Counted from the whole stretch's first letter, positions 1-25,534 are shown. The stretch: DNA of 63,573 nt, filler included, from Reclinomonas americana ATCC 50394 (GCA_048213135.1; 17 parts of 17 records of this genome joined end to end with filler, not necessarily neighbours in it), one strand, 5' to 3'. The notes: a model not told the origin generated them from the sequence alone. Made by a program: numbers and translations.

Positions 1-349
1 CGTGTTTCGTCTCCATTCGATCGACAGGCAGACTGCCTTTCGTCTTGCACACGAGATCAAGGGCGCGGGTTCGCCATGCCCGCGTGCTGGTGTCCAGCAG
101 TTTGAACTCCGAGCTCGCATAGTACTTCTGGCAAAGTTCGCGAAAGCTGCCTTTCTCGACCTTGCCAGGCGCGGAGGACTCGGCCGTCGGCTTACCCGCC
201 AAGGCGTCGCGATACGCGCTCCAAAAGGCATCCGAGCCGTATTCCTGTGTGAGACGGACCTTCGGCTTACCTGGCACGCGAACATACCACCGCACATTTC
301 CGTGCCGGTCGACGTCCTTACTGAGCCGGGGCGGGTTTGGGCGTGGCAT
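1..349 (-). CDS. Tyrosine recombinase/phage integrase, N-terminal part (runs off window start)
   Basis: Manual translation from ATG at 349 (TGATG overlap with the upstream stop): MPRPNPPRLSKDVDRHGNVRWYVRVPGKPKVRLTQEYGSDAFWSAYRDALAG...GSFRELCQKYYASSEFKLLDTSTRAWR, the typical arm-binding/core-binding start of alphaproteobacterial integrases. Catalytic domain not visible. Confidence 0.8.
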   Translation of the reverse strand, partial: MPRPNPPRLSKDVDRHGNVRWYVRVPGKPKVRLTQEYGSDAFWSAYRDALAGKPTAESSAPGKVEKGSFRELCQKYYASSEFKLLDTSTRAWRTRALDLVCKTKGSLPVDRMETKH

Positions 350-600
350 CAGGCGGCGTCATCCCACGGGTTCGCGTCAGACACAGTGTTCCGATACGGC
401 AGGCTGTCAAACGCCGCATCGAGATCCCGAACGTCCCAAATCGTGCGGGTGTTGATGGTGCGCGGGGAGGGGGCCCGGCCCTCCCTCACAAGGTCATCGA
501 ACAGTGAAGGCGAGATGCCGAAATAGAATGCGGCCTGCACCCGCGAAAGCCCGCGCGGCATGAAGCCGTGAGAATGTCGATTGTCATTGGCTGGCTGCAT
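349..600 (-). CDS. AlpA/excisionase-like HTH protein
   Basis: PRGLSRVQAAFYFGISPSLFDDLVREGRAPSPR...WDVRDLDAAFD pattern; coupled directly upstream of the integrase. Confidence 0.8.
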   Translation of the reverse strand: MQPANDNRHSHGFMPRGLSRVQAAFYFGISPSLFDDLVREGRAPSPRTINTRTIWDVRDLDAAFDSLPYRNTVSDANPWDDAA

Positions 601-734
601 TCGGGCTCCACAGAGCGACTCGGAATGCTAAACAATATTCCGAATCCTAATTTGAAAAGTCAAGAGAAATCGACCGGTGCTCCGGTGTCCGCCTCGATTT
701 CCATTACTACTCACCCGGATCACACAATTGATTG

Positions 735-1031
735 TCAAGCAGCGGCTAGCGCCCCGGAGGCAATGCGAAACGCTTTGAAATGCAGTTCGGAGCTGTCTTC
801 CGGATTCAGGACGCCGGTCGCTCTACGCAGGGCTGCGAAAGAGCGCTGGCCGTGTTCCTGAACGTGCTTATCCGCGTGCTCGAGTATGAAATCGAGATGG
901 GCCAGCCTGCCTTCGAACGCCCCGCCCACCTCCTGTGTAAGGCAGCGCAACTGCATCCCCTTGCCGCAGGGCGTGGGCCCATACGTGCTCTCGACGATCT
1001 CAAGAGTCTTGTTAACTGCGTTGGTCGACAT
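735..1031 (-). CDS. Hypothetical protein
   Basis: ORF MSTNAVNKTLE...GALAAA with GGGAG RBS-like motif upstream; divergent from the XRE gene. Confidence 0.55.
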   Translation of the reverse strand: MSTNAVNKTLEIVESTYGPTPCGKGMQLRCLTQEVGGAFEGRLAHLDFILEHADKHVQEHGQRSFAALRRATGVLNPEDSSELHFKAFRIASGALAAA

Positions 1032-1062
1032 GGTTGGCTCCCGTGTTGCGCGTCGGTATGGA

Positions 1063-1118
1063 ATCAACAATAATTATTGATACCACGCCCGCACCGGGCG
1101 TCAACAATAATTGTTGAT
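1063..1118. promoter_or_regulatory. Two palindromic operator-like sites between divergent genes
   Basis: ATCAACAA-TAA-TTATTGAT (1063-1081, one mismatch) and TCAACAA-TAA-TTGTTGA (1101-1117, perfect), immediately upstream of the XRE ATG. Confidence 0.7.
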
Positions 1119-1122
1119 AGAG

Positions 1123-1362
1123 ATGACGCCAGCGCAAACGAAAGCCGCCCGAGCCCTTTTGGATTGGTCGCAGGGAGACCTGGCTGCTGCAGCGGGGTTA
1201 GGGCTCTCTACAATCGTCGATTTCGAAAGGGAGCGTCGCGTCGTGTCGGCGGACGCCGTACGTGCGATCAAATCAGCTTTCCAGGCAGCCGATGTTGAGT
1301 TCATTGACGACGCCCGCGGTGAGGGCGTTGTGAAGTTGAAGCAACAAGCATTTGACAAATAA
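1123..1362 (+). CDS. XRE/HTH_3-family transcriptional regulator
   Basis: MTPAQTKAARALLDWSQGDLAAAAGLGLSTIVDFER...AFQAADVEFI, the classic small alphaproteobacterial XRE. Confidence 0.9.
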   Translation: MTPAQTKAARALLDWSQGDLAAAAGLGLSTIVDFERERRVVSADAVRAIKSAFQAADVEFIDDARGEGVVKLKQQAFDK

Positions 1363-1365
1363 TTG

Positions 1366-1428
1366 TTGCGCCATAGCGATTCCTAATTATAATTGTGAAT
1401 CTGTGGTCGCGATATATACTAAAGTATA
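1366..1428 (+). promoter_or_regulatory. Putative sigma70 promoter plus downstream palindrome
   Basis: TTGCGC (1366-1371)-16 nt-TATAAT (1388-1393); TATACT-AA-AGTATA palindrome at 1415-1428; upstream of the 1495 operon. Confidence 0.45.
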
Positions 1429-1494
1429 GTATAGACGCGTTATGGACTCGGATCTCCGATAGTGACATGACTCTGCCTCCTTCGAGGCGCGTCC

Positions 1495-1854
1495 ATGTCT
1501 GATGATCAAGTCTATCGCCCCATCTTCGTAAGCCGAAAGACCGCAGCGGCGTTGATGGAAATCAGCGTCGACACGTTCGATCAATGGGTTCGCACTGGAT
1601 TCGTGCCTCGGGCGCAGGTCAATCGTGGCCAAATTATCCGATGGCACTGGCCAACTGTTGAGGCGCGGCTGGCCAGCCCTGCCGAGCAACAAGCCCACGA
1701 TCCCAGCATCGTCGGACCGATCACAGATCCCAAGGAATTGGCCCGCATCGCGCGTCACGTCGAACGCCGAGAGGCGAAACGGCTCGCGCGCTCCAAGCTC
1801 TATGAGACCTCTGGCTCGCCCCGGTCACCGCCAGAGGGTGGGGCCAAGCCATGA
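1495..1854 (+). CDS. Excisionase/AlpA-like HTH DNA-binding protein
   Basis: FVSRKTAAALMEISVDTFDQWVRTGFVP...IRWHWPTVEARL winged-HTH pattern; ATGA-coupled to the next gene. Confidence 0.7.
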   Translation: MSDDQVYRPIFVSRKTAAALMEISVDTFDQWVRTGFVPRAQVNRGQIIRWHWPTVEARLASPAEQQAHDPSIVGPITDPKELARIARHVERREAKRLARSKLYETSGSPRSPPEGGAKP

Positions 1855-2156
1855 CCGACGGGCCGCTGGGAAAGATCTACGACCTCGACGAAGCCGCCGC
1901 GTACCTGCGGGTCAGCAAGAGCGCTGTGGCGCGCGCCGCGAGGCGCCATGGCATAGGCGCCAGGTTCGGCCGGGATATCCGCTTCAGCGAAGACGACGTC
2001 CGGCAAATGTGGGACGCCCAGCGAGCGCACCCCGAAACCAGCCTGCAGAATTCCATACCGCTACGAGGGTCAGAGAAGGCATTCGAAAGCCTGATGAAAC
2101 GAGCGCGTGAGCAGCGCGCCGCCAAGCTGCTGGCAAGAGGGAAAAAGCGATCATGA
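1851..2156 (+). CDS. HTH_17 (excisionase-family) protein
   Basis: IYDLDEAAAYLRVSKSAV...ARFGRDIRFSEDDV motif. Confidence 0.8.
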   Translation: MTDGPLGKIYDLDEAAAYLRVSKSAVARAARRHGIGARFGRDIRFSEDDVRQMWDAQRAHPETSLQNSIPLRGSEKAFESLMKRAREQRAAKLLARGKKRS

Positions 2157-2554
2157 ACAAGCCGATTGAGGAACCTGTCGTGGATCACTCTGTCCGCGTC
2201 CGGCTGGTCACCGCTCATCATGGCGGGGTCGTCACGGGTGCCGATGTGTTCAGCCTAGAACACTTCGGCGGCGTCCTGCCAAACGTTGGTGACGTCTTGC
2301 TTTGGATTCGCAACGAAGACGACTACGACGCAAAAGTGGTCCAGCGGCGTTACCGCGTAACCCATCCCGATCTTCGCATGCATTGGACTCTGCCGATGCG
2401 CGATGCGCCGCCAGCGCCCGAGCTCACGGGGATCGTCAGGAACGCTCTGGCCGTATCCGATTACCTCCAAGCGGTAGCAGAAGGGCAGCCGATGGAGGAG
2501 GTGATAATCCTCCTGCGGAAATGCAACGAGGGGTGGGAACGAGCCAGCGCTTGA
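2153..2554 (+). CDS. Hypothetical protein
   Basis: 133-aa ORF, ATGA-coupled to the preceding gene. Confidence 0.55.
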   Translation: MNKPIEEPVVDHSVRVRLVTAHHGGVVTGADVFSLEHFGGVLPNVGDVLLWIRNEDDYDAKVVQRRYRVTHPDLRMHWTLPMRDAPPAPELTGIVRNALAVSDYLQAVAEGQPMEEVIILLRKCNEGWERASA

Positions 2555-2601
2555 CTGCTCGTCTTGGTTGCATGACGCTACGGTAAAGACGGGGGGCTGT
2601 T

Positions 2602-2895
2602 ATGAGATTATTATGCGCCGCCGCGTCAGCTCTCGCGCTCAACGCAACAGCCGCCCGATCCCAGGCTGTGCCACCCTGCATATTGACCCACGAGAAGGTC
2701 GCAAACGTATACCAAGGCTCGGCGCCCGAGAGCATCGAGTATGCGCTTGGCTGCAAATTGCAGAAGAGAAGCAGCTCTGGCTTCGGAACTTACGCATCTA
2801 CAACATATGAGGCGACCGACGCGCGCGGATCCACCTTTACAGCGATTATGAACAGCACCGGCAGGCTACGCGACTATCATTTCTATATGCGCTAA
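2602..2895 (+). CDS. Small secreted hypothetical protein
   Basis: N-terminal signal-peptide-like MRLLCAAASALALNATAARSQA. Confidence 0.5.
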   Translation: MRLLCAAASALALNATAARSQAVPPCILTHEKVANVYQGSAPESIEYALGCKLQKRSSSGFGTYASTTYEATDARGSTFTAIMNSTGRLRDYHFYMR

Positions 2896-2927
2896 CCCCT
2901 ACTCAATACCGGCCACGGCGAGGGTGC

Positions 2928-3440
2928 ATGAAGAAGCTTGCGGTTTGGCTGCTCTGCGGCTTGATGATCATCATGGCGGCGAACGGCTTCTATGTGACCG
3001 GACCGGCGCTTCTCGCCGCACGGGAGGACGCCCGCAACGACCACGTCGTGATGGTCCCACATCTACGCTACGGCGTGGATCCTTCCGTCATCGTCATGGA
3101 CCTTATCAAGATCGATCGTGAGGCGAGCATGGCGGACGTCACCCGCGTCATGCTGCAGATGGCGCACAAGCTGCGTGACCGCACGTTTTCGAGCGCACAT
3201 CTGGCGTACCGAGGCCGGACGCGGTTCGTCCTGTCCGGCGCCGATTTCAAGGTGCTTGGTGAGGAATACGGCCCGCAGAATCCTGTCTACACCATGCGGA
3301 CGCTGCCCGAGAAATTAACGCGGCCCGACGGATCCCGAGCGTTCGATACGTGGACGGGCGGCGTGATTGGCGTGCTTTCCCAGCAGATGGATGATTTCCA
3401 GGCGTTCCATCGCGAGTGGTATTTGAACGAGGGGATTTAG
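2928..3440 (+). CDS. Membrane-anchored/exported hypothetical protein
   Basis: MKK + hydrophobic segment; 170-aa ORF with GAGGG RBS-like motif. Confidence 0.65.
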   Translation: MKKLAVWLLCGLMIIMAANGFYVTGPALLAAREDARNDHVVMVPHLRYGVDPSVIVMDLIKIDREASMADVTRVMLQMAHKLRDRTFSSAHLAYRGRTRFVLSGADFKVLGEEYGPQNPVYTMRTLPEKLTRPDGSRAFDTWTGGVIGVLSQQMDDFQAFHREWYLNEGI

Positions 3441-3601
3441 GGGCGTCGAAGAACTCGCCAAGGCGATCGCGCGGTGGCTGACCTCAAGCCAAGCCCCACC
3501 GTGAACAAAAGGTGTCAATAACTCATCCCATGCGCGCTGTCTGGCTAGACAACACAACCCCTGCGTGATCCGTTTACGCAGCGGTAACAAGGATGGTTTA
3601 A

Positions 3602-3868
3602 ATGGCTGATGTCCATGTAACGTGCATCAACAAGATGCCAAGGAACAACCCCTACGAGGGAATTACGCATCTCGGAAATTCCACCGGAAAGTGGACAAGG
3701 CAGTCAGTAATCGACTGGATCGAGCGGAAAGATCACTCCTTCTACACCTTGGTGCAGGGGAACCGGGGGAACATCGGCGTCGTAGACGGGCCGAATGGGA
3801 AGTATCTACGGACCTATGCCGATGGGAAATGGAATGACAATCTACTTTCGCTCCCAGAGTGTCCGTAG
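3602..3868 (+). CDS. DUF3892-family protein
   Basis: VTCINK..R.NPYEGITHLG...WTRQSVIDWIE....FY...KYLRTYADGKWNDNLLSLPEC matches the family pattern as I recall it. Confidence 0.8.
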   Translation: MADVHVTCINKMPRNNPYEGITHLGNSTGKWTRQSVIDWIERKDHSFYTLVQGNRGNIGVVDGPNGKYLRTYADGKWNDNLLSLPECP

Positions 3869-3913
3869 GATTCAACTACCCGCGAAAGCTGCGCTTCAAT
3901 AGGACACCGAATT

Positions 3914-4621
3914 ATGGCTCAATGCACAGCACCACGAGAAGGCCATCGCTCATCTAGCGCGGCTGCTAGATGCCCAGCCTGCCGTGGCGGTTGGGGTCGC
4001 TCGCGCGGTTACGGGTCGTATTCTCCTCCGTCGTATTCGTATTCATCCTTCTCGTCGTCAGGGAGTAGCGGGTTCGGCAGGGGCAGTAGCGGCGGTTCCA
4101 GCCGAAGTGTGAAGCCGAAATGGTCGCGGGCCGGATCGACGATCCTGTACACACCCGCTGAGGTTCGGGCGCTCACGCCGATCCGGGAGAACGTAGAAAA
4201 GCAAGCTACTCTCGATCTTCGCGACGTCTTCCTCTGTCATGCCTGGGACGATCGCCAAGGCGCAGCCAAACAGCTGCACGATCTACTCGAGGCCGCGGGC
4301 GTGAAGGTCTGGTTCAGCGAGAAAGATGTCGGTCTCGGCGTGCCGTTGATGCGAGCGATTGATAAGGGACTGGCCAATTCGCGGGTGGGGATTGTGCTCG
4401 TTACCCCGGCGCTGTTGCGCCGTCTCCCGGCGGAAGGTATCGCTGACAAGGAGCTGTCGGCGTTACTTGCACGCGATCGGCTCGTACCCATCGTGCACGA
4501 AACCACGTACGAGGCTCTGCGCGATGTGAGCCCGTTGCTAGGTTCTCGAAGCGGATTGAGCACTGCTGAAGAGTCAATGACTGCGATAGCTGCCAAGCTC
4601 GCCGAGCTAGTTGCCGTATAG
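3914..4621 (+). CDS. TIR (TIR_2) domain protein with N-terminal Cys/His motif and Ser/Gly linker
   Basis: DVFLCHAWDD...GVKVWFSE...IDKGLANSRVGIVLVTP...KELSAL (catalytic-position Glu present); N-terminal C-x6-H-x8-C-x2-C. Confidence 0.9.
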   Translation: MAQCTAPREGHRSSSAAARCPACRGGWGRSRGYGSYSPPSYSYSSFSSSGSSGFGRGSSGGSSRSVKPKWSRAGSTILYTPAEVRALTPIRENVEKQATLDLRDVFLCHAWDDRQGAAKQLHDLLEAAGVKVWFSEKDVGLGVPLMRAIDKGLANSRVGIVLVTPALLRRLPAEGIADKELSALLARDRLVPIVHETTYEALRDVSPLLGSRSGLSTAEESMTAIAAKLAELVAV

Positions 4622-4854
4622 CCGCCGCAAGGAAGCCTATTCTGATGGGCCATTGGGAACAGATCGGCGTCGAGAACAAGCGAGCCCGCGAGCTGCTTGC
4701 TGCGCTACCGCCTTGGCGTCGACGCCTCAATAGGTGGGGCGTACCGGTTGCCTTCTGGCTGTTGGTGATCGCCGGGATTGCGTGGTGGGTGACGAGCCGC
4801 CGGTAACCGGGACGTCGAACCCGTAAACCGGCGGCAATCCATGGAGGATAGCGC

Positions 4855-5892
4855 TTAGCGGCGCGCTGCCGTTTCCGGTAGCCGCATGCGCCCTTCGGCA
4901 TAGAACCGGTGAAGGTCGTCCCCGCGACGATAAATTGCCATGGCAATCTTCGCGTATGTGACCATGTGACCCGCGCAAGCGTCTCGTATCGCCGTGGAAT
5001 CGGTGGTGATCATGCGGCTCATCAACTTGTCCGCACGCTCCCTAGCCATGTCAGCGAGGGCTGGAACAGAAAAGTCTCTGTCATCCGATCCGAGTACGCC
5101 GTCCCTGTCTAAAATGCCACGGAGTTCGCGGTAACTATCCTGCATTTCTTGCTTATCGCCTTGGAATATTTCCACAAGTTCGTCGATCTGCTTCAGAGGC
5201 TCGGCCACGCCTTTCACCTCGATCTCGCCGGGGGAGGCATATTTTATTTTAGAAACCTGTAAAGGATAGTCGTCGCTAGAATCGGAAGATATATCCCTGA
5301 AGAAGCCCAGATAGCTTCCTCCGCCCTGCCAAGGGTATTTGGCTATACGATCACCAAGCGCATGTCCCAGAGGCCGCACGTATGATTTTAGGTCTGATAG
5401 ATATGAAAATAAAGCATAAAGATCTGCTAGCTTCGCGTAGAATCGCGAAAAATCTGAGGCTGACCACTTTCCATCGATCTTGTATTCGTGGCGAGTGAGG
5501 GATGTGAGAATTTCTCCACTGAAGGTTTCTGTGTGGTTCCTTGCGAAAAAGCCCTTCCCGGGCAATAAACTGGAATAGTCATCAGTTACAGCTTCAATTG
5601 GCTGCATAAGTACTTCGTCTTCAAGGTCATCCCAATCAAAAATGTATGGCGCCCCAACGCGTGGGTGCGTCATGACGAAATTGAGATCGACTTTTTGATC
5701 AAGGTAATCCTTGAAAATTTTGTCGGTAACTGCTTTTGCAATGTAGGGTTGCACAAAACCATTGACTTCACCTGGAACGGCGTAAGCGAGCAGGTGAGTG
5801 CCCTTCCGGTTCTGGAGGAGCGCCAAGATCGGCTCATCAAAGTGCACGAGAGTTTGAACGTACGCGGCACGGAGTCGGTTGCGGATTTTCAT
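4855..5892 (-). CDS. Hypothetical protein, DUF6575-like N-terminal domain
   Basis: Start MKIRNR at the ATGA overlap with the upstream gene; TLVHFDEPILAL...YL...VDL...LLPGKGFF resembles DUF6575 (from memory); C-terminal IKYASPG motif; AT-richer than host. Confidence 0.6.
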   Translation of the reverse strand: MKIRNRLRAAYVQTLVHFDEPILALLQNRKGTHLLAYAVPGEVNGFVQPYIAKAVTDKIFKDYLDQKVDLNFVMTHPRVGAPYIFDWDDLEDEVLMQPIEAVTDDYSSLLPGKGFFARNHTETFSGEILTSLTRHEYKIDGKWSASDFSRFYAKLADLYALFSYLSDLKSYVRPLGHALGDRIAKYPWQGGGSYLGFFRDISSDSSDDYPLQVSKIKYASPGEIEVKGVAEPLKQIDELVEIFQGDKQEMQDSYRELRGILDRDGVLGSDDRDFSVPALADMARERADKLMSRMITTDSTAIRDACAGHMVTYAKIAMAIYRRGDDLHRFYAEGRMRLPETAARR

Positions 5893-6293
5893 AGTATGCT
5901 CACGACATCTGTCACGGCCATGCCAGGGTCGAACCCGGCGGCCATCCAAAAACTGATGTGAGGCGAGTCAGGTCTGCCCTTGAAGCCAACCCCAGCTGCT
6001 GGATTGATTGTCATGATAGCACCATAAGGCTTATGCCGCAGAAGCCCGAGTGGCTCCGCGAAATCTCGCACGCGAGCTATCGCCCCGCTACCCCATGTCT
6101 CGTCATACTCGATAAGCGAGCACGCGGCCCAGATGCAGGGGTCAACCTTCTTTTTGGGGGTCTTCCCGAGCGCGTTGAAAGAGTGACAAAAAATTTCATC
6201 CACTTCAGGGCCGGCTATTAGCCTTACAAATATCCCTGATAAAGGAGTAGCTGATATCGGCGGGCATTGCTCAGGAAGAGGCTCTTTCGGCAA
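5889..6293 (-). CDS. Small hypothetical protein, possible ADP-ribosyltransferase-like fold
   Basis: LPEQCPP...IFVRLI...WAACSL...HISFW; TTG start; coupled to the downstream gene. Confidence 0.55.
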   Translation of the reverse strand: MPKEPLPEQCPPISATPLSGIFVRLIAGPEVDEIFCHSFNALGKTPKKKVDPCIWAACSLIEYDETWGSGAIARVRDFAEPLGLLRHKPYGAIMTINPAAGVGFKGRPDSPHISFWMAAGFDPGMAVTDVVSIL

Positions 6294-6467
6294 AAAACAC
6301 TAAGGCGTTCCCCCAAACGCTATTTGAACGGAATAACAGCTCGCCTCAAGGTTGCGATTTTTACAAGTGTGCTGCCAGCATCAGCCTGCTTTTTCTGTTC
6401 AACGTGACATGAACACGTCACACACCCTCGCCATTGGCGTGGAGCGCCACACGCAAGAATGGTGTCC

Positions 6468-7130
6468 CTAAGCCGCTTCCCCAAGCACCTCACCAATCCG
6501 GTCGTCCCAACGCCGCACGACCGCCGTTTGGATGCTCTCGCGGGTGATCTTGATCCACTGACAGTGTCCGCCCACGCCAGCCATACCGGGCCCGTGGCCG
6601 GCATTCTGGCCTCGGATGCGGCGTTGAGCCTCCATCGTCTCTACGCCCGCCGACAGTATGTCAGTGGCCGGTTCCATGGCCTCCAGCAGGACGGCAAGCT
6701 CGGAGTTGTATGGCGCAATTGCGACCGGGCCGAGCCGGTGCAAAATCCAGGGTTCAACGTTTGTGTCGTGACTCGCAACAACATATGCCTCGGGCCGGTT
6801 CCGCGCGATGGAGAACCCCGCGACAAAGAGGTCAAAGTCGGCGCCGATCTGGCAGAATTGGAGCGTATCGACCTCGCGCTCGGAAACCTCTCGCGCAAGA
6901 TCCACAATGCCTTCGACAAGTTCGTCGAACGTCTCGAATTTGCGCCCGATCTCCGGGCCGAGCATATCCATCAGCAGTGTTGGGCCGCGAGAACACGCAA
7001 CCGCGTTGAGATGAGGATAGAGCTGCCCCTTGCTTGAGATTGCACCTAGCGTACCGTCGCCGAGGTAATGGGCGCCGTCACAAAAGACATGAATGGCATC
7101 GGTCTCAGTGATGATGTTCACGGCGGTCAT
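6468..7130 (-). CDS. Proteasome-beta/HslV-like Ntn-hydrolase-fold protein
   Basis: After Met removal: Thr1, Asp17, Lys33, Gly48; C-terminal GVGGHCQWIKIT strand; ATGA overlap with the tape-measure stop. Confidence 0.6.
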   Translation of the reverse strand: MTAVNIITETDAIHVFCDGAHYLGDGTLGAISSKGQLYPHLNAVACSRGPTLLMDMLGPEIGRKFETFDELVEGIVDLAREVSEREVDTLQFCQIGADFDLFVAGFSIARNRPEAYVVASHDTNVEPWILHRLGPVAIAPYNSELAVLLEAMEPATDILSAGVETMEAQRRIRGQNAGHGPGMAGVGGHCQWIKITRESIQTAVVRRWDDRIGEVLGEAA

Positions 7131-9460
7131 GTGTGAATTACTCCGTAAATGGCCTCTATTGGCCCTGTTCCAATCAACGCCGCCTGCAGCGCAGCCTTTG
7201 CTAATTGCTTGACGAGATTCTTGAGGACATCTTCGGCCTTGCCGCCCTCAATGATGATGTCGCTAAGTGCGTCTACGGCTGAATCTCCGAAGAACTTTGA
7301 AGCATCGTTCGCAGCCTTTTGGGCGTCCTCGAGCTCCTTCTTTTTAGTACGGAGCTGCTCGGAAAGCTGGATCTCTTTATTGAGCTTGCCCAGGATCTCT
7401 TCGCGGGTTTGTGCATCGAGGCGGTTGAGGTCGACTCCGGCTCGCGCGAGCTCCATCGCAGCGCGCTTCTCGGCATTAGATTTGCCGAAATTATCAATCT
7501 CTGCCTGCAGTACGAGGTTCTGACGGGCCACGCTGTCGGTGTAGCGGTTCAGGCGGTCTTCGGCGGTTTCGGACTCGCTTTTCCCGCCGCCTCCCTTGCC
7601 GCCGCCCTTCTGGGCTGCTTCAGCCGCCAGAATGGCCTTGGCGGCATTTTCAGCGGCAGCCCGCGATACCGGCGAGCCGCCTTCCATTGCGGCTTTCCAC
7701 AGTTCGGTGGTCTTCTCCTCGAGCTTCCTCTTGTCCTCATCCATCTGGGCAAGGCGCACCTTCCCCTGCAACTTCAGGGCCGCCACTACGGGATCGCGCG
7801 CCACTTCAGCGGCTGGATCCGGCAGCTTCCCCGTGTCCACGACGAAGCCGGAGCGGTTGAGCGCTGATTGCTCGTCCTGAAGCTTGCTGCTCGTAGCAAA
7901 TCCCTCAGCCGCCGCCCGCGTACTGATGAGAGCCCCCCGCACCGCCGCTAGCTGCGTGAGCATGTTGGCGATGGAGCCAAAGGCCCGGGCGAAACTGATA
8001 TCGGTTTCGCCCAGCCGCTTGAGCTCGTCCGCGGCAGCAAGGGCCGCCTTTTCGTTTCCCTCAAGCCCCTTGGTAACAAGGTCGATAGCGCGCCGTTTGT
8101 CGTCAGCGCTTACGCCAGCAGAACTGATCGTGCCGGCTGCCGCGGTCAGAGCGCTGCGCAGGGCGCGCTCCAACCCCTCGGCAGCTGCCTTATCCTCCTG
8201 AAGCTTCTTATTATAGCCGTCGGTGACGGCCTTGTTCATGCGATCGGACGTTTCAGCGACCTGATCGCCAACGCCCTTGATTGCGTCTTTGGCGTCATTC
8301 GCCGGAGGCCGTAGTGCCTGCAGCGCAGCCGCATAGCGATCAGTGGTTTCCTTGCCCTTGCCGGCCTCAGTCGCGAGATATGCAACCACCGCGGCCGTAC
8401 CAAGGATCGCCGCGCCGATAGGGCCGCCAACGAGCGCCAGAGCGCCGCGCAGGGCCGCCACGCTTGTCGCTGCCAGCTGAGCCCGCACGCCGAGTGCAGC
8501 CAGCCCTGCGGACGCCGCCGTAGACGCCGTGACGGCCGCGCCAATCTGCGCCACCATGGGCGCAAGGCCCTGCGCTACCAGCCGGCTCGCAATTACGGCA
8601 CCTACAGCCGCAGCGGCCGTGGCTACGCCATCAATATTCTTGGCTAGAAACTGAATTGAAGACGACGCTGCCGATGCGGCAATGCCCATCTGTTGGCTAT
8701 TTCCAACAAACTTCAGCGCCGCGTTCTGCAGCATGGTGAAGCTGTCGGCGATCGACGCGTTTGTCTTGGCAAAGGCCGCGCCAACTTCAGGCGCAGCATT
8801 GACGATCGCGCGAAATACGCGATCAGAGACCAGTTTGCCTTCGGCGCCCAGATCCTTCAGCTGCCCAACAGCAACACCGAACTCCTTGGCGATGGCCTGA
8901 GCCACGACCGGGGCGTTCTCAAGCAGCGACCGAAGCTCGTCGCCCTGCAACCGACCAGACCCAAGCGCCTGGCCCAACTGCACAAGCGTGGACTGTGTTT
9001 CTGCCGCAGACGCACCGGACACCTTCAGCGCCTTCGACACAGTTTCGGTCGCGAGGGCAATCTCGCCCTGCGTCGCGCCGAAATCCTTGCCGGTGCGGGT
9101 CAGACGTGCGTAAAGGTCAGCGACCTCAGCAAATCCCGTCCGCGACCGTGTAGCAATATCGGCGATCTCATTCGAGACTGCACCGGCCATCGCTTCACCG
9201 ACGCCGGCCGATTTAATCTTGTTCGTGGCCTCCTGCCAGGTATCAGCGAGCTTCTTCAGCTCATTCAGTACCGCGGCACCACCAACAATCTTAGCTAGTT
9301 TGTCGAAGGAGCCCGAGACATTGGACTCCATTTCGCTGGCGCGGGACTCAATGCTTTTAGAGATGCGATCAAATTGGTTGGACTGTCGTTTTAACGCGCG
9401 TTCAAAGCGATTTGCGGTCACGTCTAAGACGAGACTGAGTTTTTCTGCATCTACTGCCAT
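7127..9460 (-). CDS. Phage tail tape measure protein
   Basis: DLYARL...KALKVSGASAAETQSTLVQLGQALGSGRLQGDELRSLLENAP.VAQAIA tape-measure N-terminal domain; Ala-rich helical body with hydrophobic stretches; 777 aa. Confidence 0.92.
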   Translation of the reverse strand: MAVDAEKLSLVLDVTANRFERALKRQSNQFDRISKSIESRASEMESNVSGSFDKLAKIVGGAAVLNELKKLADTWQEATNKIKSAGVGEAMAGAVSNEIADIATRSRTGFAEVADLYARLTRTGKDFGATQGEIALATETVSKALKVSGASAAETQSTLVQLGQALGSGRLQGDELRSLLENAPVVAQAIAKEFGVAVGQLKDLGAEGKLVSDRVFRAIVNAAPEVGAAFAKTNASIADSFTMLQNAALKFVGNSQQMGIAASAASSSIQFLAKNIDGVATAAAAVGAVIASRLVAQGLAPMVAQIGAAVTASTAASAGLAALGVRAQLAATSVAALRGALALVGGPIGAAILGTAAVVAYLATEAGKGKETTDRYAAALQALRPPANDAKDAIKGVGDQVAETSDRMNKAVTDGYNKKLQEDKAAAEGLERALRSALTAAAGTISSAGVSADDKRRAIDLVTKGLEGNEKAALAAADELKRLGETDISFARAFGSIANMLTQLAAVRGALISTRAAAEGFATSSKLQDEQSALNRSGFVVDTGKLPDPAAEVARDPVVAALKLQGKVRLAQMDEDKRKLEEKTTELWKAAMEGGSPVSRAAAENAAKAILAAEAAQKGGGKGGGGKSESETAEDRLNRYTDSVARQNLVLQAEIDNFGKSNAEKRAAMELARAGVDLNRLDAQTREEILGKLNKEIQLSEQLRTKKKELEDAQKAANDASKFFGDSAVDALSDIIIEGGKAEDVLKNLVKQLAKAALQAALIGTGPIEAIYGVIHT

Positions 9461-9534
9461 AAAAATACCTTGCAGCGATGAGCAGAATCAACGAGCTGAT
9501 TAAGATCGATCGCTTTGTCAAAGTGGAAAAGAAA

Positions 9535-9972
9535 ATGTCGGAGAACGCGCAGGACGTCGTCGAGCTCGCGGCTCACATCGTGTCGGCCTACGTTGCAAAC
9601 AATAGCGTGCCGCAAAACGAGTTGGCCGCTTTGATCGCAAGTACGCATGCCGCGCTAGCCGGCCTCGGGTTGGCACCCGCACCTGCTCCTGAGGAAAAAG
9701 CCGTGCCTGCGGTCTCGATTAAAAAGTCGATTTCGCCAGACTATTTGATCTGCTTGGAGGACGGCAAAAAGTTCAAATCGCTTAAGCGGCATCTTCGCAC
9801 GGCGTATGACATGTCGCCCGATCAGTACCGCACCAAATGGGGCCTGCCGCCCGACTATCCGATGGTGGCGCCTGCTTACGCTGAGGCGCGCTCGCAGCTC
9901 GCTAAGCAGATGGGTTTAGGCCAGCAGCGTCGTAAACGGTGTTCCGACCGCACCTTCTTCGCCGCGGATTGA
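9535..9972 (+). CDS. mucR: MucR/Ros-family zinc-finger transcriptional regulator
   Basis: LAAHIVSAYVANNSV...PAVSIKKSISPDYLICLEDGKKFKSLKRHL...KWGLPPDYPMVAPAYA..RS.LAK.MGLG. Confidence 0.95.
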   Translation: MSENAQDVVELAAHIVSAYVANNSVPQNELAALIASTHAALAGLGLAPAPAPEEKAVPAVSIKKSISPDYLICLEDGKKFKSLKRHLRTAYDMSPDQYRTKWGLPPDYPMVAPAYAEARSQLAKQMGLGQQRRKRCSDRTFFAAD

Positions 9973-9983
9973 GCGCCCACTCT

Positions 9984-10012
9984 AACGATCCTGATTTGGA
10001 GGGATCGTTTTG
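9984..10012 (+). terminator. Putative intrinsic terminator after mucR
   Basis: AACGATCC (9984-9991) / GGATCGTT (10002-10009) stem followed by T residues. Confidence 0.4.
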
Positions 10013-10032
10013 TGTCTAGGCTTGACCATAGA

Positions 10033-10132
10033 NNNNNNNNNNNNNNNNNNNNNNNNNNNNNNNNNNNNNNNNNNNNTTAATTAATTAANNNNNNNNNNNN
10101 NNNNNNNNNNNNNNNNNNNNNNNNNNNNNNNN
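10033..10132. other. Assembly spacer (first of 16: 10033, 15325, 18429, 20827, 25048, 28304, 30832, 32611, 35463, 39017, 42785, 45833, 49557, 53153, 60861, 62426; each 100 nt)
   Basis: 44 N + TTAATTAATTAA (stops in all six frames) + 44 N, identical each time. Confidence 0.99.
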
Positions 10133-11095
10133 ATACAGATCTTTAACTCGTTTGACCTCGTCGGATCCGGGGATAATTTCTACCAGTTGAATTAGGATTT
10201 TGCCTTCTTTGAATACTTTTGGCGGCTCAGATTCAAAATGCTTTATTAGGTTTAGCGCGAATTCCTCAGCAAACGACGGTCCAATCGGCGGAGGATTTGC
10301 TATCAACAATAACTCCTTGGCAATCTGACTTAAAGCTTGGCAGGGAAAATCGAATGTCAGTTTTGCTTCGCCATTATTTACGACGCGAACCCCAAATTCA
10401 CGACCGTCGAAGACGATATAACTGTTTGGTTCGAGTTCGACATTCCAGTACAAGCCACCCGCTGAGCTTGGGGAGCTTGCCAACCCCAGCTCCTCCATAA
10501 ACATCCTGTGCTCAAATTCGGGTGTCTGGCTCTCCTCATAATTAGGAACAACTTCTCCACTAAATGCAAAAGAAAAGTATTTTGAAATAGAATCCGCTTC
10601 CTTTCTCGATATCGCCGATATAAATTGCAATGTTCTTAATGAAAAAGATCCGGGCTGTCGAATTTCTCCAGCAAGTATTCTTGAATAAAGCCTTCTGAGA
10701 TCGTCAGATGTTTTATCTTCTGCGCTTCGTGAGAATGTATTTAGCCAATCGTCCTCAATTTCGCTCAATGCATCTGAAGGGCCGGGGTTGGTAGCGATTT
10801 CTTCCAGTGCCAATCGGCCAATTTCGGTGCGATTTTCAACCTTGCGGCTATCTTCTGTATTCTGAGTAATCGCGCGTTGCGAAACCTCAGCGACTGCGGT
10901 CACCTTGCCCGTATTGGCGTCGACCCGAGCTGTAAGGTTTTGGCCCACGGATAGTACAACTGCACTCACCGCCTTATCCAAATTCTTCAGCGTCTGCGGC
11001 ATGGGAGGCAGGCCAGGGAGCCGAACACCGAGCCACTCTGACAGCGCTTCGCGGATGGACGGAAGCGGTGGCTTGTCGTCGTCGCTCTTCGGCAT
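10133..11095 (-). CDS. DUF2806-family protein (3' end at the gap)
   Basis: ENRTEIGRLALEE...IEDDWLNTFSRSAEDKTSDDLRRLYSRILAGEIRQPGSFSLRTL; AT-rich. Confidence 0.85.
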
Positions 11096-11157
11096 ATTGT
11101 CCCCCGCAACCTCAGATGAGCAGAGGATAAGCTTGCAACCTCCACCGGCACAACAGA

Positions 11158-11267
11158 CGGAACAACGGAACACATCTAAAGATGTGTTCCGTTCCGTTCC
11201 GCCTGTCCCGGATGCCCAGAAATGCCGGAACGCCGGAACAAGACGGAACATGTTCCGCTATGTTCCG
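11158..11267. repeat. Iteron-like repeat cluster, putative replication origin
   Basis: Five CGGAAC and five GTTCCG copies; perfect 13-bp inverted repeat AACGGAACACATC-TAAA-GATGTGTTCCGTT (11164-11193); palindrome CGGAACATGTTCCG (11244-11257); abuts the helicase stop. Confidence 0.7.
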
Positions 11268-12493
11268 TCATCGCAGGCGCTAAATACGCCCGCCTCCTCA
11301 GTTGTCAGGCCGCCATCTAGAAGCGCTCGCCGAACTCGCTGAAAGCGAACCTTCAGGATATCAGGCTTGTCAGTGGGGTACTCGGCATAAAAGGCCGTGC
11401 GCCATTCTTCGACGGTCGCAGCACCAATCTTGCGTAAGCAGTGCATGGCGACGGCGTTGTGTCCCCTGAGTGTCGCCCCGAACGCCTTTGCCGCCTCCTT
11501 CGCGTCGTCCTGCACGATTATGGGCGCAGTCGTCGGGTTGCCCTCCTCGTCCTCGCCGACCGTTACCGACTCCATGCGGAAGGTAGTGACAACGCCGTCT
11601 TCGGCATCGTTGGCGCCATCGCATTCGAGGACAAAACAGCCGCCACCCTTCTTCTTCACCATGAAGCTGGCGTCGACCGCGCCGTCTAGGTCGATGGCGC
11701 CCTTACCACGCTCGCCGGACCATGCTGTGTGATGGATCACGGTGACATGTGTGCCGGTCTCTTTGAGCATCAGGTCGCAGTTCGCGACGAAGCGGCCCAT
11801 GTCCTTCGAAGCGTTCTGGTCCCCTGGCCCGAAGACACGCGTCAGAGTGTCGATGATGATCCAAACGCAGGCTTGTCCGCACTGGCGCTCGGCCTCGCGG
11901 ATAGCCGCAACGAGGGCTCTGGTGTCCACGTTCGCGCTGGTCATGTCGATGAAGCCGCCGAGCACTAACAGCGGTATCTTTCCGATGCCGTAACGCTTTC
12001 GGAATGCCGCCATCCGGCGCTCTGTGAGCTTCTTGCGCTCGGCCGCGATGTAGACAACGAAGCCCTGCCTGACCTTCCTGCCGTGCCAGTCCATGCCCGC
12101 CGCGACGTGGCAGGCTATGTCGGTCATGATGGCTGACTTGCCAGTACCGGGCAGGCCGCTGGCCATCGTGAACTCACCATCGCCGAGTACGCCCTTCACG
12201 AACGTCTTCTTGACCTGCGTCGTATCGATGTCGGCGAACCACGTCAGGTCGAAGCGGCCGGTACCGGCGGGGCGGTTGTCGTTGGCTGGAGTAGGTTGCC
12301 GCCGGGCAGCTCGGGCGGCCTTATCTTCGGCGTCCTTCGCCTCGAGCAGACGGGCGTTGGTCTTGCGCCAGACGGCGAGCCAAGGGTGCTTGGCAGGATC
12401 CGCGTCATCGGCGCAGACAATCAGTGGACCCGGGCGGTAAGGCGTGTCTGTGCGACGGTCGTCGTCCGTAAGCTCAGGCGCAGCTTCGGTCAT
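11258..12493 (-). CDS. AAA_25/RepA-like (SF4) replicative helicase
   Basis: Walker A GLPGTGKS, VVYIAAE, Walker B IIIDTL, VIHHTA..G..KGA. Confidence 0.9.
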   Translation of the reverse strand: MTEAAPELTDDDRRTDTPYRPGPLIVCADDADPAKHPWLAVWRKTNARLLEAKDAEDKAARAARRQPTPANDNRPAGTGRFDLTWFADIDTTQVKKTFVKGVLGDGEFTMASGLPGTGKSAIMTDIACHVAAGMDWHGRKVRQGFVVYIAAERKKLTERRMAAFRKRYGIGKIPLLVLGGFIDMTSANVDTRALVAAIREAERQCGQACVWIIIDTLTRVFGPGDQNASKDMGRFVANCDLMLKETGTHVTVIHHTAWSGERGKGAIDLDGAVDASFMVKKKGGGCFVLECDGANDAEDGVVTTFRMESVTVGEDEEGNPTTAPIIVQDDAKEAAKAFGATLRGHNAVAMHCLRKIGAATVEEWRTAFYAEYPTDKPDILKVRFQRVRRALLDGGLTTEEAGVFSACDDGT

Positions 12494-12728
12494 TCAGGGT
12501 GTTCCCGTTCATGTGCGCCACAGCGGCGCGGGTAATTTTTGAGGCAACGGCGGGGGTGAAGGTCGCCGCTCGTCGAGTGCCGACCTTGGGAGCGCTGACG
12601 CGGTACTGACCGTCCGGCTGCCGTACTAGCCGCATGCCGCAAAGGCGAAGCCCATCGCTAATCTGAACGTCGAAGTGCGCGAGTGTCGGCCCGTCTGGTG
12701 AGGCGGGCCAGAATGCAGTGATATTCAA
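12474..12728 (-). CDS. Small SpoVG-like nucleic-acid-binding protein
   Basis: TTG start after GGAGG; TLAHFDVQISDGLRLCGMRLVRQPDGQYRVSAP beta-strand pattern. Confidence 0.5.
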   Translation of the reverse strand: MNITAFWPASPDGPTLAHFDVQISDGLRLCGMRLVRQPDGQYRVSAPKVGTRRAATFTPAVASKITRAAVAHMNGNTLNDRSCA

Positions 12729-12857
12729 GTGTGTCCTCCATGGACGTATACCCAAATGGGCGCGAGCCCGCTCGCGGAATTGCGGGCGGATAAGCATGGT
12801 TGACGGCCTAAAAATCCTTACGTATGGCTTATGTCATCGCAACAGAGGTCTTACGAT

Positions 12858-13094
12858 ATGCCTAAGTCAGTGGATTTCATTGTCGACGATTTGAATGAGC
12901 GGTTACGCCTTGCGCCTGGCGACTCCGGAACAATCCTCTGGAAGGATTTTTATGCGGACTACGGTATCCAGCGCTTCAAGGCTCCGCGCCCGGACCAAAT
13001 TAAGGAGCAGGCCCGGGCCAAATTCGGCTTGATTGTCTCGTTCGGCGATAACGTTGTTAACGTAGCTTACGACCGGAACTTCAACCCGATTTAA
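12858..13094 (+). CDS. Hypothetical protein
   Basis: 78-aa ORF MPKSVDFIV...RNFNPI with GAGG upstream; last gene before att. Confidence 0.55.
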   Translation: MPKSVDFIVDDLNERLRLAPGDSGTILWKDFYADYGIQRFKAPRPDQIKEQARAKFGLIVSFGDNVVNVAYDRNFNPI

Positions 13095-13208
13095 CACGCA
13101 GCGTCATTGGTCGCGGTGGGACAGGTGAGATAGAAAGCATAAGGATTTCATGGGACGAGAATTCGTCCCACTTTCCGCTAACTACTTGTCTTCACTTGGC
13201 TCTTTGGC

Positions 13209-13225
13209 TCCCCATGGGAGCGCCA
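13209..13225 (+). other. Putative att site: duplicated tRNA 3' end (probably tRNA-Glu)
   Basis: TCCCCA-TGGGAGC-G-CCA reads as T-stem 3' arm, acceptor strand, discriminator and CCA, with no tRNA body upstream; lies at the transition to host-like genes. Confidence 0.6.
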
Positions 13226-13445: not shown

Positions 13446-14312
13446 TCAGTGACTGTTGACGGGCAGTCTCGCCGCCAGAAGCTGCCCCGCCAGAACCTCG
13501 TGCTTCAGCTTCTCGGTGCCGAGAAAACGCCGCTGCGACGTGATGAACAGGGTCCGCCCATCGCGCCCGCCCAGCATGGGCATGGTCGGGCGCGAGACCG
13601 GCAGCCTGACCACGACATCGAGCGTTCCGTCCGGCCGCCGTCGCTCGACCCGCGAGCCGTTCACCACTGCGATCCAGACGCCGCCATCGGCGTCGGTGCA
13701 AGCGCCGTCGGGATGCTCGTCCCCCGTAAACCGCACGAATGGCCGGCCATTGGAGAAGGCGCCGCTAGCGACGTCATAGTCGAAGGCCTCGACCAGCTGG
13801 CTGCGGCTGTCGGAAAAGTAGAATGTCTTGCCGCAGGGCGAGAATGCGATCGCGTTCGGGACCCGGATCTCGCTCCGGTGCCGCTGCAGCGAACCCTCCG
13901 AGGTCAGCGAATAGAGCGCTCCGACCGGCGCGCCATTGCCGGTCTTGTCCATGCTGCCGAACCACAGCCGGCCGGTCGGGTCGGTCTTGCCGTCATTGAG
14001 CCGGTTGCCGGGCAGGTCTTCCTCGACCGCGAACAATCTGTCACCGACGCCTGTGGCGGGATCGAAGGCATAGATTCCGTCCTCCAGGCCGAGAACCAGG
14101 CCGTGGCTGCCGAAGGCCACCACGAAGCCTGGCATGAGCGGCAGTCGATACATCGACCTGCGGCCGCTGCCCGGCTCGAAGCCGAGCAGCCTTTGCCCCT
14201 GGATGTCGATCCACCAGAGCGTGCCGCGCGCCGCGTCCCAGAACGGCGCCTCGCCGGTGAGGGCGTCGGCCATGTGCACCGGCAGGATGTCGTCGGTCGC
14301 GATCGTCAGCAT
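13446..14312 (-). CDS. SMP-30/gluconolactonase/LRE-family protein
   Basis: GEAPFWD...LWWIDI, RLNDGKTDPTGRLWFGSM, PNAIAFSP, PDGACTDADGGVWIA. Confidence 0.95.
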   Translation of the reverse strand: MLTIATDDILPVHMADALTGEAPFWDAARGTLWWIDIQGQRLLGFEPGSGRRSMYRLPLMPGFVVAFGSHGLVLGLEDGIYAFDPATGVGDRLFAVEEDLPGNRLNDGKTDPTGRLWFGSMDKTGNGAPVGALYSLTSEGSLQRHRSEIRVPNAIAFSPCGKTFYFSDSRSQLVEAFDYDVASGAFSNGRPFVRFTGDEHPDGACTDADGGVWIAVVNGSRVERRRPDGTLDVVVRLPVSRPTMPMLGGRDGRTLFITSQRRFLGTEKLKHEVLAGQLLAARLPVNSH

Positions 14313-14322
14313 GAGGAGACCT

Positions 14323-15324
14323 CTACCAGCAGCGCAGCACGGCGTTCCCCGTCGCGCGGGTTTCGATGGAGAGCAATTGCCCCGCGGCCGGAGCCTCGGC
14401 AGTCAGGCCGGGCGGCATGCGGATATAGGTGTTGGTGACATAGAGCGTATGGCTGCCGGCGCCGCCGAAAGCGCAGCCGGTCGGCATCGGCACCGGCAGC
14501 GAGACCTCTTCGACAAGGCGTCCGTCCGGATCATAGCGGCGCACGCTCCAGCCGCCGACCCAGGCGATCCAGAGATGCCCTTCCGAATCGATGGTCATGC
14601 CGTTCGGCCGGCCGGCTCCCGCCTCTGCCTCGATCAGCAGGCGCGGATTGCTGCAGAGCCCTGCCTCGACGTCGAAATCGTAGACCTGGACCCCCGCCAG
14701 GTCGGCATCGGCGACATACATGCACGAGCCGTCGAGCGAGAACACCGGATTGCGCGGTGCCCCCGCCGGCGCCGGGTGCCGGCGCGACAGCAGGCTGTGG
14801 TCGATCGAATAGAGACGGCCCCGCCTTGGCGTCTGGTCGAGCGCCATCGTGCCGGCCCAGATGCGTCCGCGTGGGTCGACACCGGCCGTGTTGAAACGGT
14901 TGTCGGGCCGATCCGTCTCCGGGTTGAACAATGCCGAGACCCGGCCGCTGTCGGGATCGATCAGGCTGAAGCCCCCCTGTCCGCAGCCGATGAGCTGGCC
15001 TTGCCGGTCCAGCGCCAGGCCGGCGGTGATCGCCGGCAGGGCGATCCGCCCGGATTGCTGATCGGCCGGATCGAACCAGCGCAAGGCCGGCGCCAGCACA
15101 TCGACCCAGAACAGCTTCTTGCGCCGGTCGTCCCAGATCGGGCTCTCGCCGACGAAATCCCGGCCGGTCGGCAAGGCGGTCACGGAGCTGGCGGCAGGCT
15201 GAGCCGGCTGGCGCATGACATAGGGAGCCGAGAGGTCGACGCCGATCTGGCTCGAGGCCCGACGGGCCGCCTCGACCAGCATCCGCCCGAGATCGTGCAG
15301 CTCCTCGACACCGGCGGCGGCGTA
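14323..15324 (-). CDS. SMP-30-family protein, 5'-truncated, probably fused to an N-terminal IclR-type domain
   Basis: GESPIWD, NRFN, PNGMTIDSEGHLWIA; frame open to the gap, reading ...EELHDLGRMLVEAARRASSQIG, like the IclR C-terminal helix. Confidence 0.85.
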   Translation of the reverse strand, partial: YAAAGVEELHDLGRMLVEAARRASSQIGVDLSAPYVMRQPAQPAASSVTALPTGRDFVGESPIWDDRRKKLFWVDVLAPALRWFDPADQQSGRIALPAITAGLALDRQGQLIGCGQGGFSLIDPDSGRVSALFNPETDRPDNRFNTAGVDPRGRIWAGTMALDQTPRRGRLYSIDHSLLSRRHPAPAGAPRNPVFSLDGSCMYVADADLAGVQVYDFDVEAGLCSNPRLLIEAEAGAGRPNGMTIDSEGHLWIAWVGGWSVRRYDPDGRLVEEVSLPVPMPTGCAFGGAGSHTLYVTNTYIRMPPGLTAEAPAAGQLLSIETRATGNAVLRCW

Positions 15325-15752: not shown

Positions 15753-15790
15753 AGAACCGGGCCCGCAAGGCAACAGAGAGGAGACGACCC

Positions 15791-17536: not shown

Positions 17537-17537
17537 C

Positions 17538-24563: not shown

Positions 24564-24572
24564 GAGGCGGCC

Positions 24573-25502: not shown

Positions 25503-25534
25503 CCCATCCTCTTGCCAACGAAGGACCCAGCAAG

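Follow-up and report, generated by a model that had tools for sequence, protein, structure and literature searches.

A likely phage-satellite-like island in tRNA-Glu(CTC) that pairs a tape measure gene with a predicted Ntn hydrolase

General features of the island

We analysed a stretch of 63,573 nucleotides (63.6 kb), called the window here, from the assembly recorded as Reclinomonas americana ATCC 50394 (GCA_048213135.1). The window is not one molecule; it is a chain of 17 short contigs, with the same artificial linker placed 16 times between them. The subject of this report is an integrative island on contig A (1-10032) and contig B (10133-15324), which carries an intact gene for a phage-type tape measure protein (TMP) and, overlapping it, a gene named o220 whose predicted product has the fold of an N-terminal nucleophile (Ntn) hydrolase. 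The interval 10033-10132, which the original prediction had read as a sequencing gap, is the artificial linker between the two contigs. The integrase, XRE regulator, AAA_25 gene, iterons, att site and TMP listed in that prediction are all present at or near the places given for them. The main features are:

2-349, minus strand: 5' part (116 codons) of a tyrosine integrase gene; the rest lies left of the window, with the gene's end within tRNA-Glu at a distance of about 793 nt
6468-7130, minus strand: o220, candidate Ntn hydrolase of the proteasome-beta fold; its start overlaps the TMP stop (ATGA)
7127-9460, minus strand: TMP, 777 aa, intact (PF20155, E 3.4e-56; TIGR02675; phrog_339, E 1.5e-80)
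9478-9972, plus strand: MucR/Ros regulator, divergent from TMP (PF05443, E 2.8e-51)
9932-10032, plus strand: left end of an IS66-family insertion sequence, within which contig A stops
10033-10132: artificial contig linker, N44-TTAATTAATTAA-N44, non-genomic, one of 16 copies
11158-11267, both orientations: iteron cluster GTTCCG/CGGAAC, 10 copies, at the 3' end of the AAA_25 gene
11258-12493, minus strand: AAA_25 replicative helicase-type gene, 411 aa (PF13481, E 1.1e-32; phrog_906, E 7e-53)
13209-13225, plus strand: attR, a 17-nt copy of the tRNA-Glu(CTC) 3' end
13446-15282: two gluconolactonase-type genes, chromosomal, beyond attR

Island boundaries and integration site

The 17-nt att motif occurs only once in the window. 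In the nearest genome, G001, which has no island, the same 17-mer forms the 3' end of tRNA-Glu(CTC) and the chromosomal genes of contig B stand directly after it; the 100% identity between G001 and contig B begins exactly at window position 13209. The left end was found on a metagenome contig, L063, which is 99.99% identical across all 10,032 bases of contig A and reaches 2.9 kb farther left. There the matching att that the original prediction had expected left of the integrase lies at -772 to -756 (window coordinates), beside the integrase, as the last 17 bases of an intact tRNA-Glu(CTC). When two further bases are counted, attL and attR are identical over 19 nt, and both copies are perfect. 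The 116-codon integrase fragment of the window gave no Pfam or PHROG match; the complete gene on L063 encodes an intact protein of 381 aa (PF00589, E 2.1e-13; phrog_1, E 3.1e-39).

Contigs A and B belong together as arms of a single island, whose insertion site is the 3' end of tRNA-Glu(CTC). The join between them is artificial, and it could be supposed that the assembly has set unrelated loci side by side, an outcome which the original prediction had named as fatal to its reading. This explanation is refuted, because attL and attR match, the tRNA-Glu of G001 directly precedes the chromosomal genes of contig B, and the downstream contigs (15425-35400) are colinear with G001, along C25 and then C4. 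The chain of contigs therefore follows chromosome order, though the assembly is patchy: about 2.5-5 kb of G001 sequence is missing between adjacent C25-matching contigs (15325-35562).

The visible part of the island is about 13.9 kb, made up of about 10.8 kb from attL to the end of contig A and 3.1 kb from the start of contig B to attR, and at least 1.84 kb is missing between them. The size given for cf-PICIs is about 10-18 kb in the accessible part of one preprint (10.1101/2025.02.11.637232). With attL and attR, integrase, AAA_25 gene and iterons, the locus is the att-bounded integrative island with its own replication module that had been predicted, and it has both the integrase and the replication and regulation modules by which cf-PICIs are recognised.

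Tape measure protein and its divergent regulator

The sequence of TMP points to descent from a known prophage lineage. Its closest relatives, 76-78% identical and 933-948 aa long, belong to the prophages L020 and L067, which have complete head-tail operons. The homolog in L020 (Bosea; 948 aa, 76% identity) is placed within a complete HK97-type operon running from TerL to lysozyme, and the viral-collection contigs L067-L069 are prophages of the same kind (TMPs of 889-933 aa, 57-78% identity). The island TMP aligns end to end with the first ~780 residues of these phage proteins, which are 110-162 residues longer.

The maximum-likelihood tree of TMPs showed two deep groups, one of which consists of short TMPs of 572-586 aa, found in elements only. 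In the other, four element TMPs of 776-790 aa (window, L021, L044 and L064) cluster beside the phage TMPs of 889-948 aa, with a support of 93/95, which is below the star threshold of the tool. The dN/dS of TMP was 0.05-0.10, element-element pairs included (a rough NG86 estimate, with dS saturated in most pairs). It means that the gene is maintained under purifying selection and is not drifting. The satellite TMP also differs in length from that of its presumed helper, as in PLEs (777 against 889-948 aa).

TMP is flanked upstream by MucR and IS66 and downstream by o220 and defence cargo, which is not the setting of a tape measure gene in a complete siphophage. A divergent MucR gene immediately upstream of TMP was seen in three elements (window; L049:7158-7601; L064:9470-9991), with 61-68% identity, and this MucR/Ros regulator may control the TMP-o220 operon.

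The Ntn-hydrolase-fold partner o220

No match to o220 was obtained at the sequence level in Pfam, PHROG or the other libraries scanned. Its AlphaFold2 model, built from a 24-sequence alignment, had a pLDDT of 91.5 and a pTM of 0.89. Every one of the top solved structures that Foldseek matched to this model was a 20S proteasome beta subunit (probability 1.0, E about 1e-9). The independent aligner VIA gave Z 17.7 with proteasome beta, with an rmsd of 2.9 Å over 178 aligned residues, and Z 15.9 with Anbu, 13.0 with HslV and 12.5 with BPH. An ESM Atlas look-up agrees on the fold, returning structure rows with PF00227.

The catalytic residues of proteasome-type Ntn hydrolases are Thr1, Asp17 and Lys33 in archaeal proteasome numbering. 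In several structural matches residue 2 of the o220 model is aligned to residue 1 of the mature chain. Residue 2 is Thr in 10 and Ser in 14 of the 24 family sequences, and D18 and K34 are each invariant in all 24. Without the initial Met, these residues reproduce the Thr1/Asp17/Lys33 spacing. The ATGA overlap of the TMP stop and the o220 start (4 nt) is present in the window and in L021, and o220 is predicted to be an active Ntn hydrolase co-translated with TMP. The dN/dS of o220 was 0.11-0.51 by the same rough NG86 method, again with dS saturated in most pairs.

A role of o220 as distal tail protein was ruled out by the proteasome-like fold. For the same reason, the match of the L021 homolog to phrog_13702, annotated as terminase large subunit (E 3.5e-8), was judged to reflect a mislabelled family. 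A complex prediction of o220 with TMP residues 600-777 scored 0.01 against a mark of 0.34, which is evidence neither way.

Regulators, replication module and cargo

The other genes of the island are:

349-600, minus strand: 83-aa regulator at the AlpA position beside the integrase (phrog_25900, E 5e-13)
735-1070, minus strand: o111, backbone gene conserved in the family (phrog_2300, E 1.3e-6), 74% identical to the L021 homolog
1111-1362, plus strand: XRE-type helix-turn-helix (HTH) regulator, divergent from o111 (HTH_3, E 9.8e-7)
1495-2156, plus strand: two HTH genes (119 aa, then 101 aa), the second of the HTH_17/excisionase family
1851-2156, plus strand: this HTH_17/excisionase-family gene (PF12728, E 2.2e-10; TIGR01764, E 1.1e-7; phrog_66)
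2153-2554, plus strand: o133, conserved backbone gene, 45% identical to the L021 homolog, with homologs also in L044 and L046
2602-2895: o97, small secreted-looking protein with a signal-peptide-like start
just upstream of the TIR gene: 170-aa membrane protein
just upstream of the TIR gene: DUF3892 gene (E 1.1e-15)
3914-4621: TIR protein, matched over its full length by PADLOC ThsB1 (E 2.7e-123)
4855-5949, minus strand: o364, with a PD-T4-10_B match (E 8.6e-20)
10133-11251, minus strand: DUF2806/TIGR03899-like gene of low GC (PF10987, E 1.6e-17; TIGR03899, E 8.2e-16)
12474-12797, minus strand: o107, which precedes the AAA_25 gene
12831-13094, plus strand: o87, small gene at the island edge, an open reading frame (ORF) only, with no family match

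As for the AlpA/Xis gene of the original prediction, an excisionase-family gene is present at 1851-2156, while the regulator beside the integrase had no AlpA match in Pfam or NCBIfam. Homologs of the XRE regulator are found in L021, L044, L046-L049, L051, L052 and L064. The AAA_25 protein is 71% identical to a homolog in L053 which adjoins a portal-protease-capsid-TerL block. The DUF2806 gene is cut short at its 3' end where contig B begins, and the 5' end of the listed ORF overlaps the iterons.

Of the 32 GTTCCG hexamers in the window, 10 lie within 110 nt (11158-11267). The window-wide total is not above chance (32 observed, 37.9 expected), so the non-random feature is the clustering. The cluster is a credible candidate for an origin of replication.

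The region 2602-6293 is variable cargo (o97, the 170-aa membrane protein, the DUF3892 gene, the TIR protein, o364 and o134), and GC content drops to 0.50 in 5001-6000. No ThsA model matched among the 12 island proteins scanned. The genes of relatives at this position differ, and L064 has there a weak AbiU2-like match (E 4.9e-4, below the Pfam cut-off). The position behaves like the defence hotspot of known satellites. Homologs of o97, 35-38% identical, were seen in the related prophages (L020:9730-9930; L067:9717-9929; L068:9639-9854), on the opposite strand between the chaperone gene and TMP, and o97 is a shared moron-like gene.

The break between the contigs and the missing middle

Contig A and L063, the only 100% TMP match in the metagenome scan, stop no more than 26 nt apart. 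Contigs of four public runs were aligned to 9000-10032. Several otherwise unrelated contigs from public runs share only 9932-10032, and one contig of 4.3 kb (run X1) extends 1,840 nt past the end of contig A. The terminal 101 nt of contig A recur in 17 of the 111 genomes of the genus, and in 7 of the 10 loci examined the repeat goes on for 1.4 kb or more. Its continuation in L072 matched plasmid records at 71-79% over 92-100% of 1.6 kb, in which the annotation of the matched segment is IS66 family tnpA, tnpB or transposase. These matches indicate that an IS66 copy is inserted at the extreme 3' end of MucR, and this accounts for assemblies repeatedly breaking there; the last ~13 codons of MucR probably derive from the end of the insertion sequence. 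The missing stretch between contigs A and B is at least 1.84 kb and begins with this IS66 copy. An exact-pattern scan of viral contigs found no contig A/B junction. The TMP-end stretch 8800-10032 is present in runs of 14 studies.

Profile scans for virion genes covered 23 ORFs with Pfam and 21 ORFs with PHROG, and no capsid, portal, terminase or tube gene is visible in the window by them. There was also no lysin or holin match in the visible part of the island, where TMP is the sole tail gene. When 44 proteins of one related prophage and one related element were searched by tblastn against the whole window, matches were confined to TMP and the backbone genes, and no piece of the island was found in the other contigs. 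It had been predicted that TMP is the only virion gene. This holds for what can be seen, but the missing stretch of at least 1.84 kb sits where relatives carry head and packaging genes: a full head/packaging module in L043, L047, L050 and L053, or pieces of it (major capsid protein (MCP), S78 protease or HNH) in L021, L046, L049 and L064.

Rfam and ARAGORN scans of the window returned nothing. The contigs in 35563-53152, the stretch searched, had no match to G001. The eight short contigs of 35563-63573 have a GC content of about 0.47-0.59, extreme strand skews and few long ORFs, and microsatellite-like arrays of CT/GA/TCTCT are dense in them. In appearance they are contaminants or artefacts that were added at the end of the pseudo-molecule.

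Relatives form a mosaic family of elements

In a family sample of 301 genomes the best TMP match was 34% identical, and a scan of one genome per species gave two close relatives, L020 and L021, both Bosea by record name. L021 is a contiguous relative of the whole island. Its order is o107, AAA_25, about 6 kb, TMP (790 aa), o220, a collagen-like fibre gene, o133, HTH_17, HTH, XRE and o111. After o111 come a small regulator and an integrase, for which tblastn gave no match to the window's own. In the ~6 kb at the position of the gap there are genes for an HK97-fold major capsid protein (PF05065, E 2e-55), for a cold-shock-domain protein and for an HNH endonuclease. The distance from AAA_25 to TMP is only about 6 kb in both contiguous relatives, L021 and L064.

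Homologs of o220 were found in 11 of the 111 genus genomes and in 8 of the 401 genomes of an order sample. In L021, L064 and the window, and in 9 of 10 further loci, a TMP-like gene is directly upstream of o220; the remaining locus is L052, on a contig of 7.9 kb that was outside the profile scans. No o220 homolog was detected by tblastn in the L020/L067-type prophages. The elements of the family are about 15-20 kb and have an integrase, regulators and a replication gene.

In the full-type loci (L043, L047, L050 and L053) there are genes for capsid, S78-type protease, head-tail adaptor, HNH and TerL, and TMP and o220 come after them. Portal is present in three of the four, and TerS in L043, L047 and L050. 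Tail terminator or completion genes stand before TMP, except in L047, where they are named only after o220. The o220 of L043 is 78% identical to that of the window, and the integrase of L050 is 84% identical to the N-terminal part of the window's. By gene content, the full-type loci have the cf-PICI gene set, with neck genes and the TMP pair added. Reduced loci keep fewer of these genes:

L021: MCP, HNH
L046: S78 protease, HNH, fibre
L064: S78 protease
L049: HNH, a weak ClpP-like match, a weak TerS match and a TAC_11-like gene (after o220)
L044: fibre only
L045: a weak TerS match, fibre

L049 and L064, which share the divergent MucR/TMP layout of the window, both count among the reduced loci. 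With PHROG, the elements gave no match to tube, Dit or hub; the exceptions are one gene of L049 with a TAC/tube annotation and, in L047, a weak match to TAC. The search for a family which the original prediction recommended did find small elements in which TMP is phage-derived and no gene for tube, Dit or hub can be recognised.

The late operon begins with a gene of a conserved family of ~350 aa (358 aa in L021:5663-6736), present also in L043, L044, L046, L049 and L064 and absent, among the reduced loci, from L045. It had no Pfam, PHROG, NCBIfam or PDB-sequence match. Its AlphaFold2 model was poor (pLDDT 48.4), with only residues ~282-356 confident, as helices, and the family may be a regulator.

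Several reduced elements have a fibre gene after o220 (L021:13061-14326; L044:5895-6755; L046:8652-9935). The N-terminal part of the L021 and L044 fibres matches the fibre/tailspike of the L020 type (for L021, 47% over 142 residues), and this sharing suggests attachment to the same tail tip. G001 has no island, and an o220-like pseudogene with one TAG was seen in it, right after a C-terminal remnant of TMP (L082, G001:C16:129134-129817). L082 is a decayed member of the TMP/o220 element family.

Interpretation of the island

On balance, we slightly favour the view that the island is a member of a mosaic, integrase-bounded, self-replicating and phage-satellite-like family, whose members have so far come mainly from Bosea-like Hyphomicrobiales. 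Once induced by a helper siphophage of the L020/L067 type, the island would excise, replicate from the iteron origin with the AAA_25 protein and leave in virions whose tails are built from the tube, chaperones and tip of the helper around the island's own TMP. Since the phage TMPs are 110-162 residues longer, such chimeric tails are expected to be shorter, by about 15-25 nm if the ratio quoted in the accessible text of PMC12987554 applies. The o220 hydrolase would either process the island TMP or disable that of the helper. Capsids might be its own, as cf-PICI-like relatives could make them, or those of the helper, depending on the unseen middle. That a satellite here supplies its own TMP, as originally proposed, is supported by analogy, by the relatives and by purifying selection, whereas the mechanism for this copy is one that we infer. 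More speculatively, and in our opinion doubtfully, TMP and the Ntn hydrolase may be a portable module for tail takeover, in which the protease removes or trims the helper TMP or matures its own; the reduced elements, and perhaps this island with them, would then be a minimal class of tail-hijacking satellites that keep this module, a few genes for head interference and sometimes a fibre.

Several observations weigh against a working satellite. The middle of this copy is unseen, with IS66 separating MucR and TMP from the rest, and this insertion, close to the promoter region of TMP, may have damaged the copy. No TerS or pac/cos function is visible in it. Outside the genus, TMP stood beside o220 in only 2 of 6 loci (tblastn, 1.5 kb flank each). 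A close tube gene or helper prophage of the L020 type was not present in 10 element-bearing genomes, which leaves infecting helpers possible. The head-module pieces of reduced relatives do not fit together (L021 has MCP but no protease, whereas L046 and L064 have the protease but no MCP), which is also the pattern expected from decay. Excision, replication, helper dependence and packaging are each predictions.

The main rival is that the island is a decaying, immobile remnant of a cf-PICI-like element or small prophage, in which TMP and o220 survive by recency or exaptation. We consider this less probable, though a serious possibility. The IS66 insertion on the MucR/TMP side, the non-matching head fragments of reduced relatives, the o220-like pseudogene (one TAG) after the TMP remnant in G001 and the lack of a resident helper-type tube gene in the 10 genomes would all suit it. 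However, the integrase (381 aa), the AAA_25 gene, the iterons and the regulators are intact and both att copies are perfect; every long-type element has whole ORFs for TMP and o220, whose dN/dS is far under 1, and the ATGA coupling is retained in the window and L021. Contig A is moreover 99.99% identical on a contig of another source, and 8800-10032 is found in the runs of 14 studies. It is very unlikely that the gap conceals the head-tail operon of an ordinary prophage. In favour of it are the gap, of at least 1.84 kb, and the 2.5-5 kb that the assembly misses between neighbouring contigs elsewhere, but upstream of TMP there are a divergent MucR and an insertion sequence and not chaperones and tube, and downstream there are an Ntn-hydrolase-fold gene and defence cargo and not Dit, hub and fibres. 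In L021 and L064 the stretch from AAA_25 to TMP measures only about 6 kb, and the modules for replication and regulation are those typical of small islands.

It is also conceivable, though rather improbable, that TMP and o220 are anti-phage cargo, a decoy TMP and a protease that would spoil the tail assembly of siphophages without serving the spread of the element. The island does carry other genes of defence type (the ThsB-like TIR and the PD-T4-10_B-like gene), TMP is a close mimic of those in an actual phage lineage, and interference of satellites with tail assembly is documented in the accessible parts of two papers, for Rta in PLE11 (PMC12987554) and for Tai systems (PMC11364771). In full-type relatives, however, the pair ends the head/neck/terminase operon as a structural gene would, and in the PLE precedent the satellite TMP is in structural use, according to the available portion of PMC12987554. 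The cargo reading is compatible with the satellite-like family that we favour.

Manipulation of tails by satellites was shown recently, in a single system (PLE/ICP1). If the satellite interpretation is true, a second and unrelated lineage in soil and water alphaproteobacteria would point to tail takeover as a general strategy of satellites, with a stolen TMP that can be traced to a concrete phage lineage and is coupled to a predicted protease. It would also give a testable role to the phage-linked homologs of the proteasome. The full-type and reduced relatives form a natural series in which to ask which virion genes satellites can lose.

Comparison with known systems

The main idea of the original prediction is a sound one, but satellites that carry a TMP have precedents; PLEs, some cf-PICIs and EPIPs of this kind are already published, judging from the accessible parts of the sources cited below. 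The pairing of TMP with an Ntn hydrolase and the reduced forms appear to be new. Among the matches listed in our literature search, no title or abstract described this pairing, and no report linking Bosea with a phage satellite was found. Phage-linked proteasome homologs of the PPH, AAH and RPC groups have been catalogued, with function unknown (PMC8665760, available portion). Like them, o220 has the proteasome-beta fold and lies in mobile, phage-related proteobacterial DNA. Pairing with a tape measure gene is unmentioned in that portion.

The EPIPs of Mycolicibacterium are small satellites with TMP and altered tail length (PMC12822802, a preprint, in its accessible text). They differ from the island in having a serine integrase, an actinobacterial host, free particles that reportedly induce a prophage, and longer tails.

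PLEs of Vibrio cholerae encode their own TMP, TAC and hub, and their chimeric tails are 10 nm shorter than those of ICP1 (PMC12987554, as far as its accessible text goes). By the same text, the likeness is a satellite TMP shorter than that of the helper, which PLEs use to build chimeric, shorter tails with helper parts. PLEs add a TAC and a baseplate hub and parasitise a myovirus, whereas here neither gene was seen in the visible sequence and the putative helpers are siphoviruses. The partner of the island TMP is an Ntn-hydrolase-fold protein.

The L020/L067-type siphoprophages of Bosea (L020, L067-L069) share with the island a TMP that is 57-78% identical over the whole length of the window protein, and an o97-like gene. 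They differ in their full operon from TerL to lysozyme and in TMPs 110-162 residues longer.

The cf-PICIs (preprints 10.1101/2022.09.08.507074 and 10.1101/2025.02.11.637232), some of which carry putative tmp genes (legend of Extended Data Fig. 10b in PMC12987554), resemble the island in several ways. In its visible part the island is, like them, small and integrase-bounded, with regulation and replication modules, no lysis genes and no complete tail module. The packaging module is not visible in this copy; its expected place is the missing stretch, so this copy is neither filed as a cf-PICI nor excluded from them. The family has in addition tail terminator or completion genes, and its TMP is coupled to a gene with the Ntn hydrolase fold; it differs also in its alphaproteobacterial host, in AAA_25 with GTTCCG iterons and in reduced relatives without most head genes. 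Its full-type members share capsid, protease, adaptor, HNH and TerL with the cf-PICIs.

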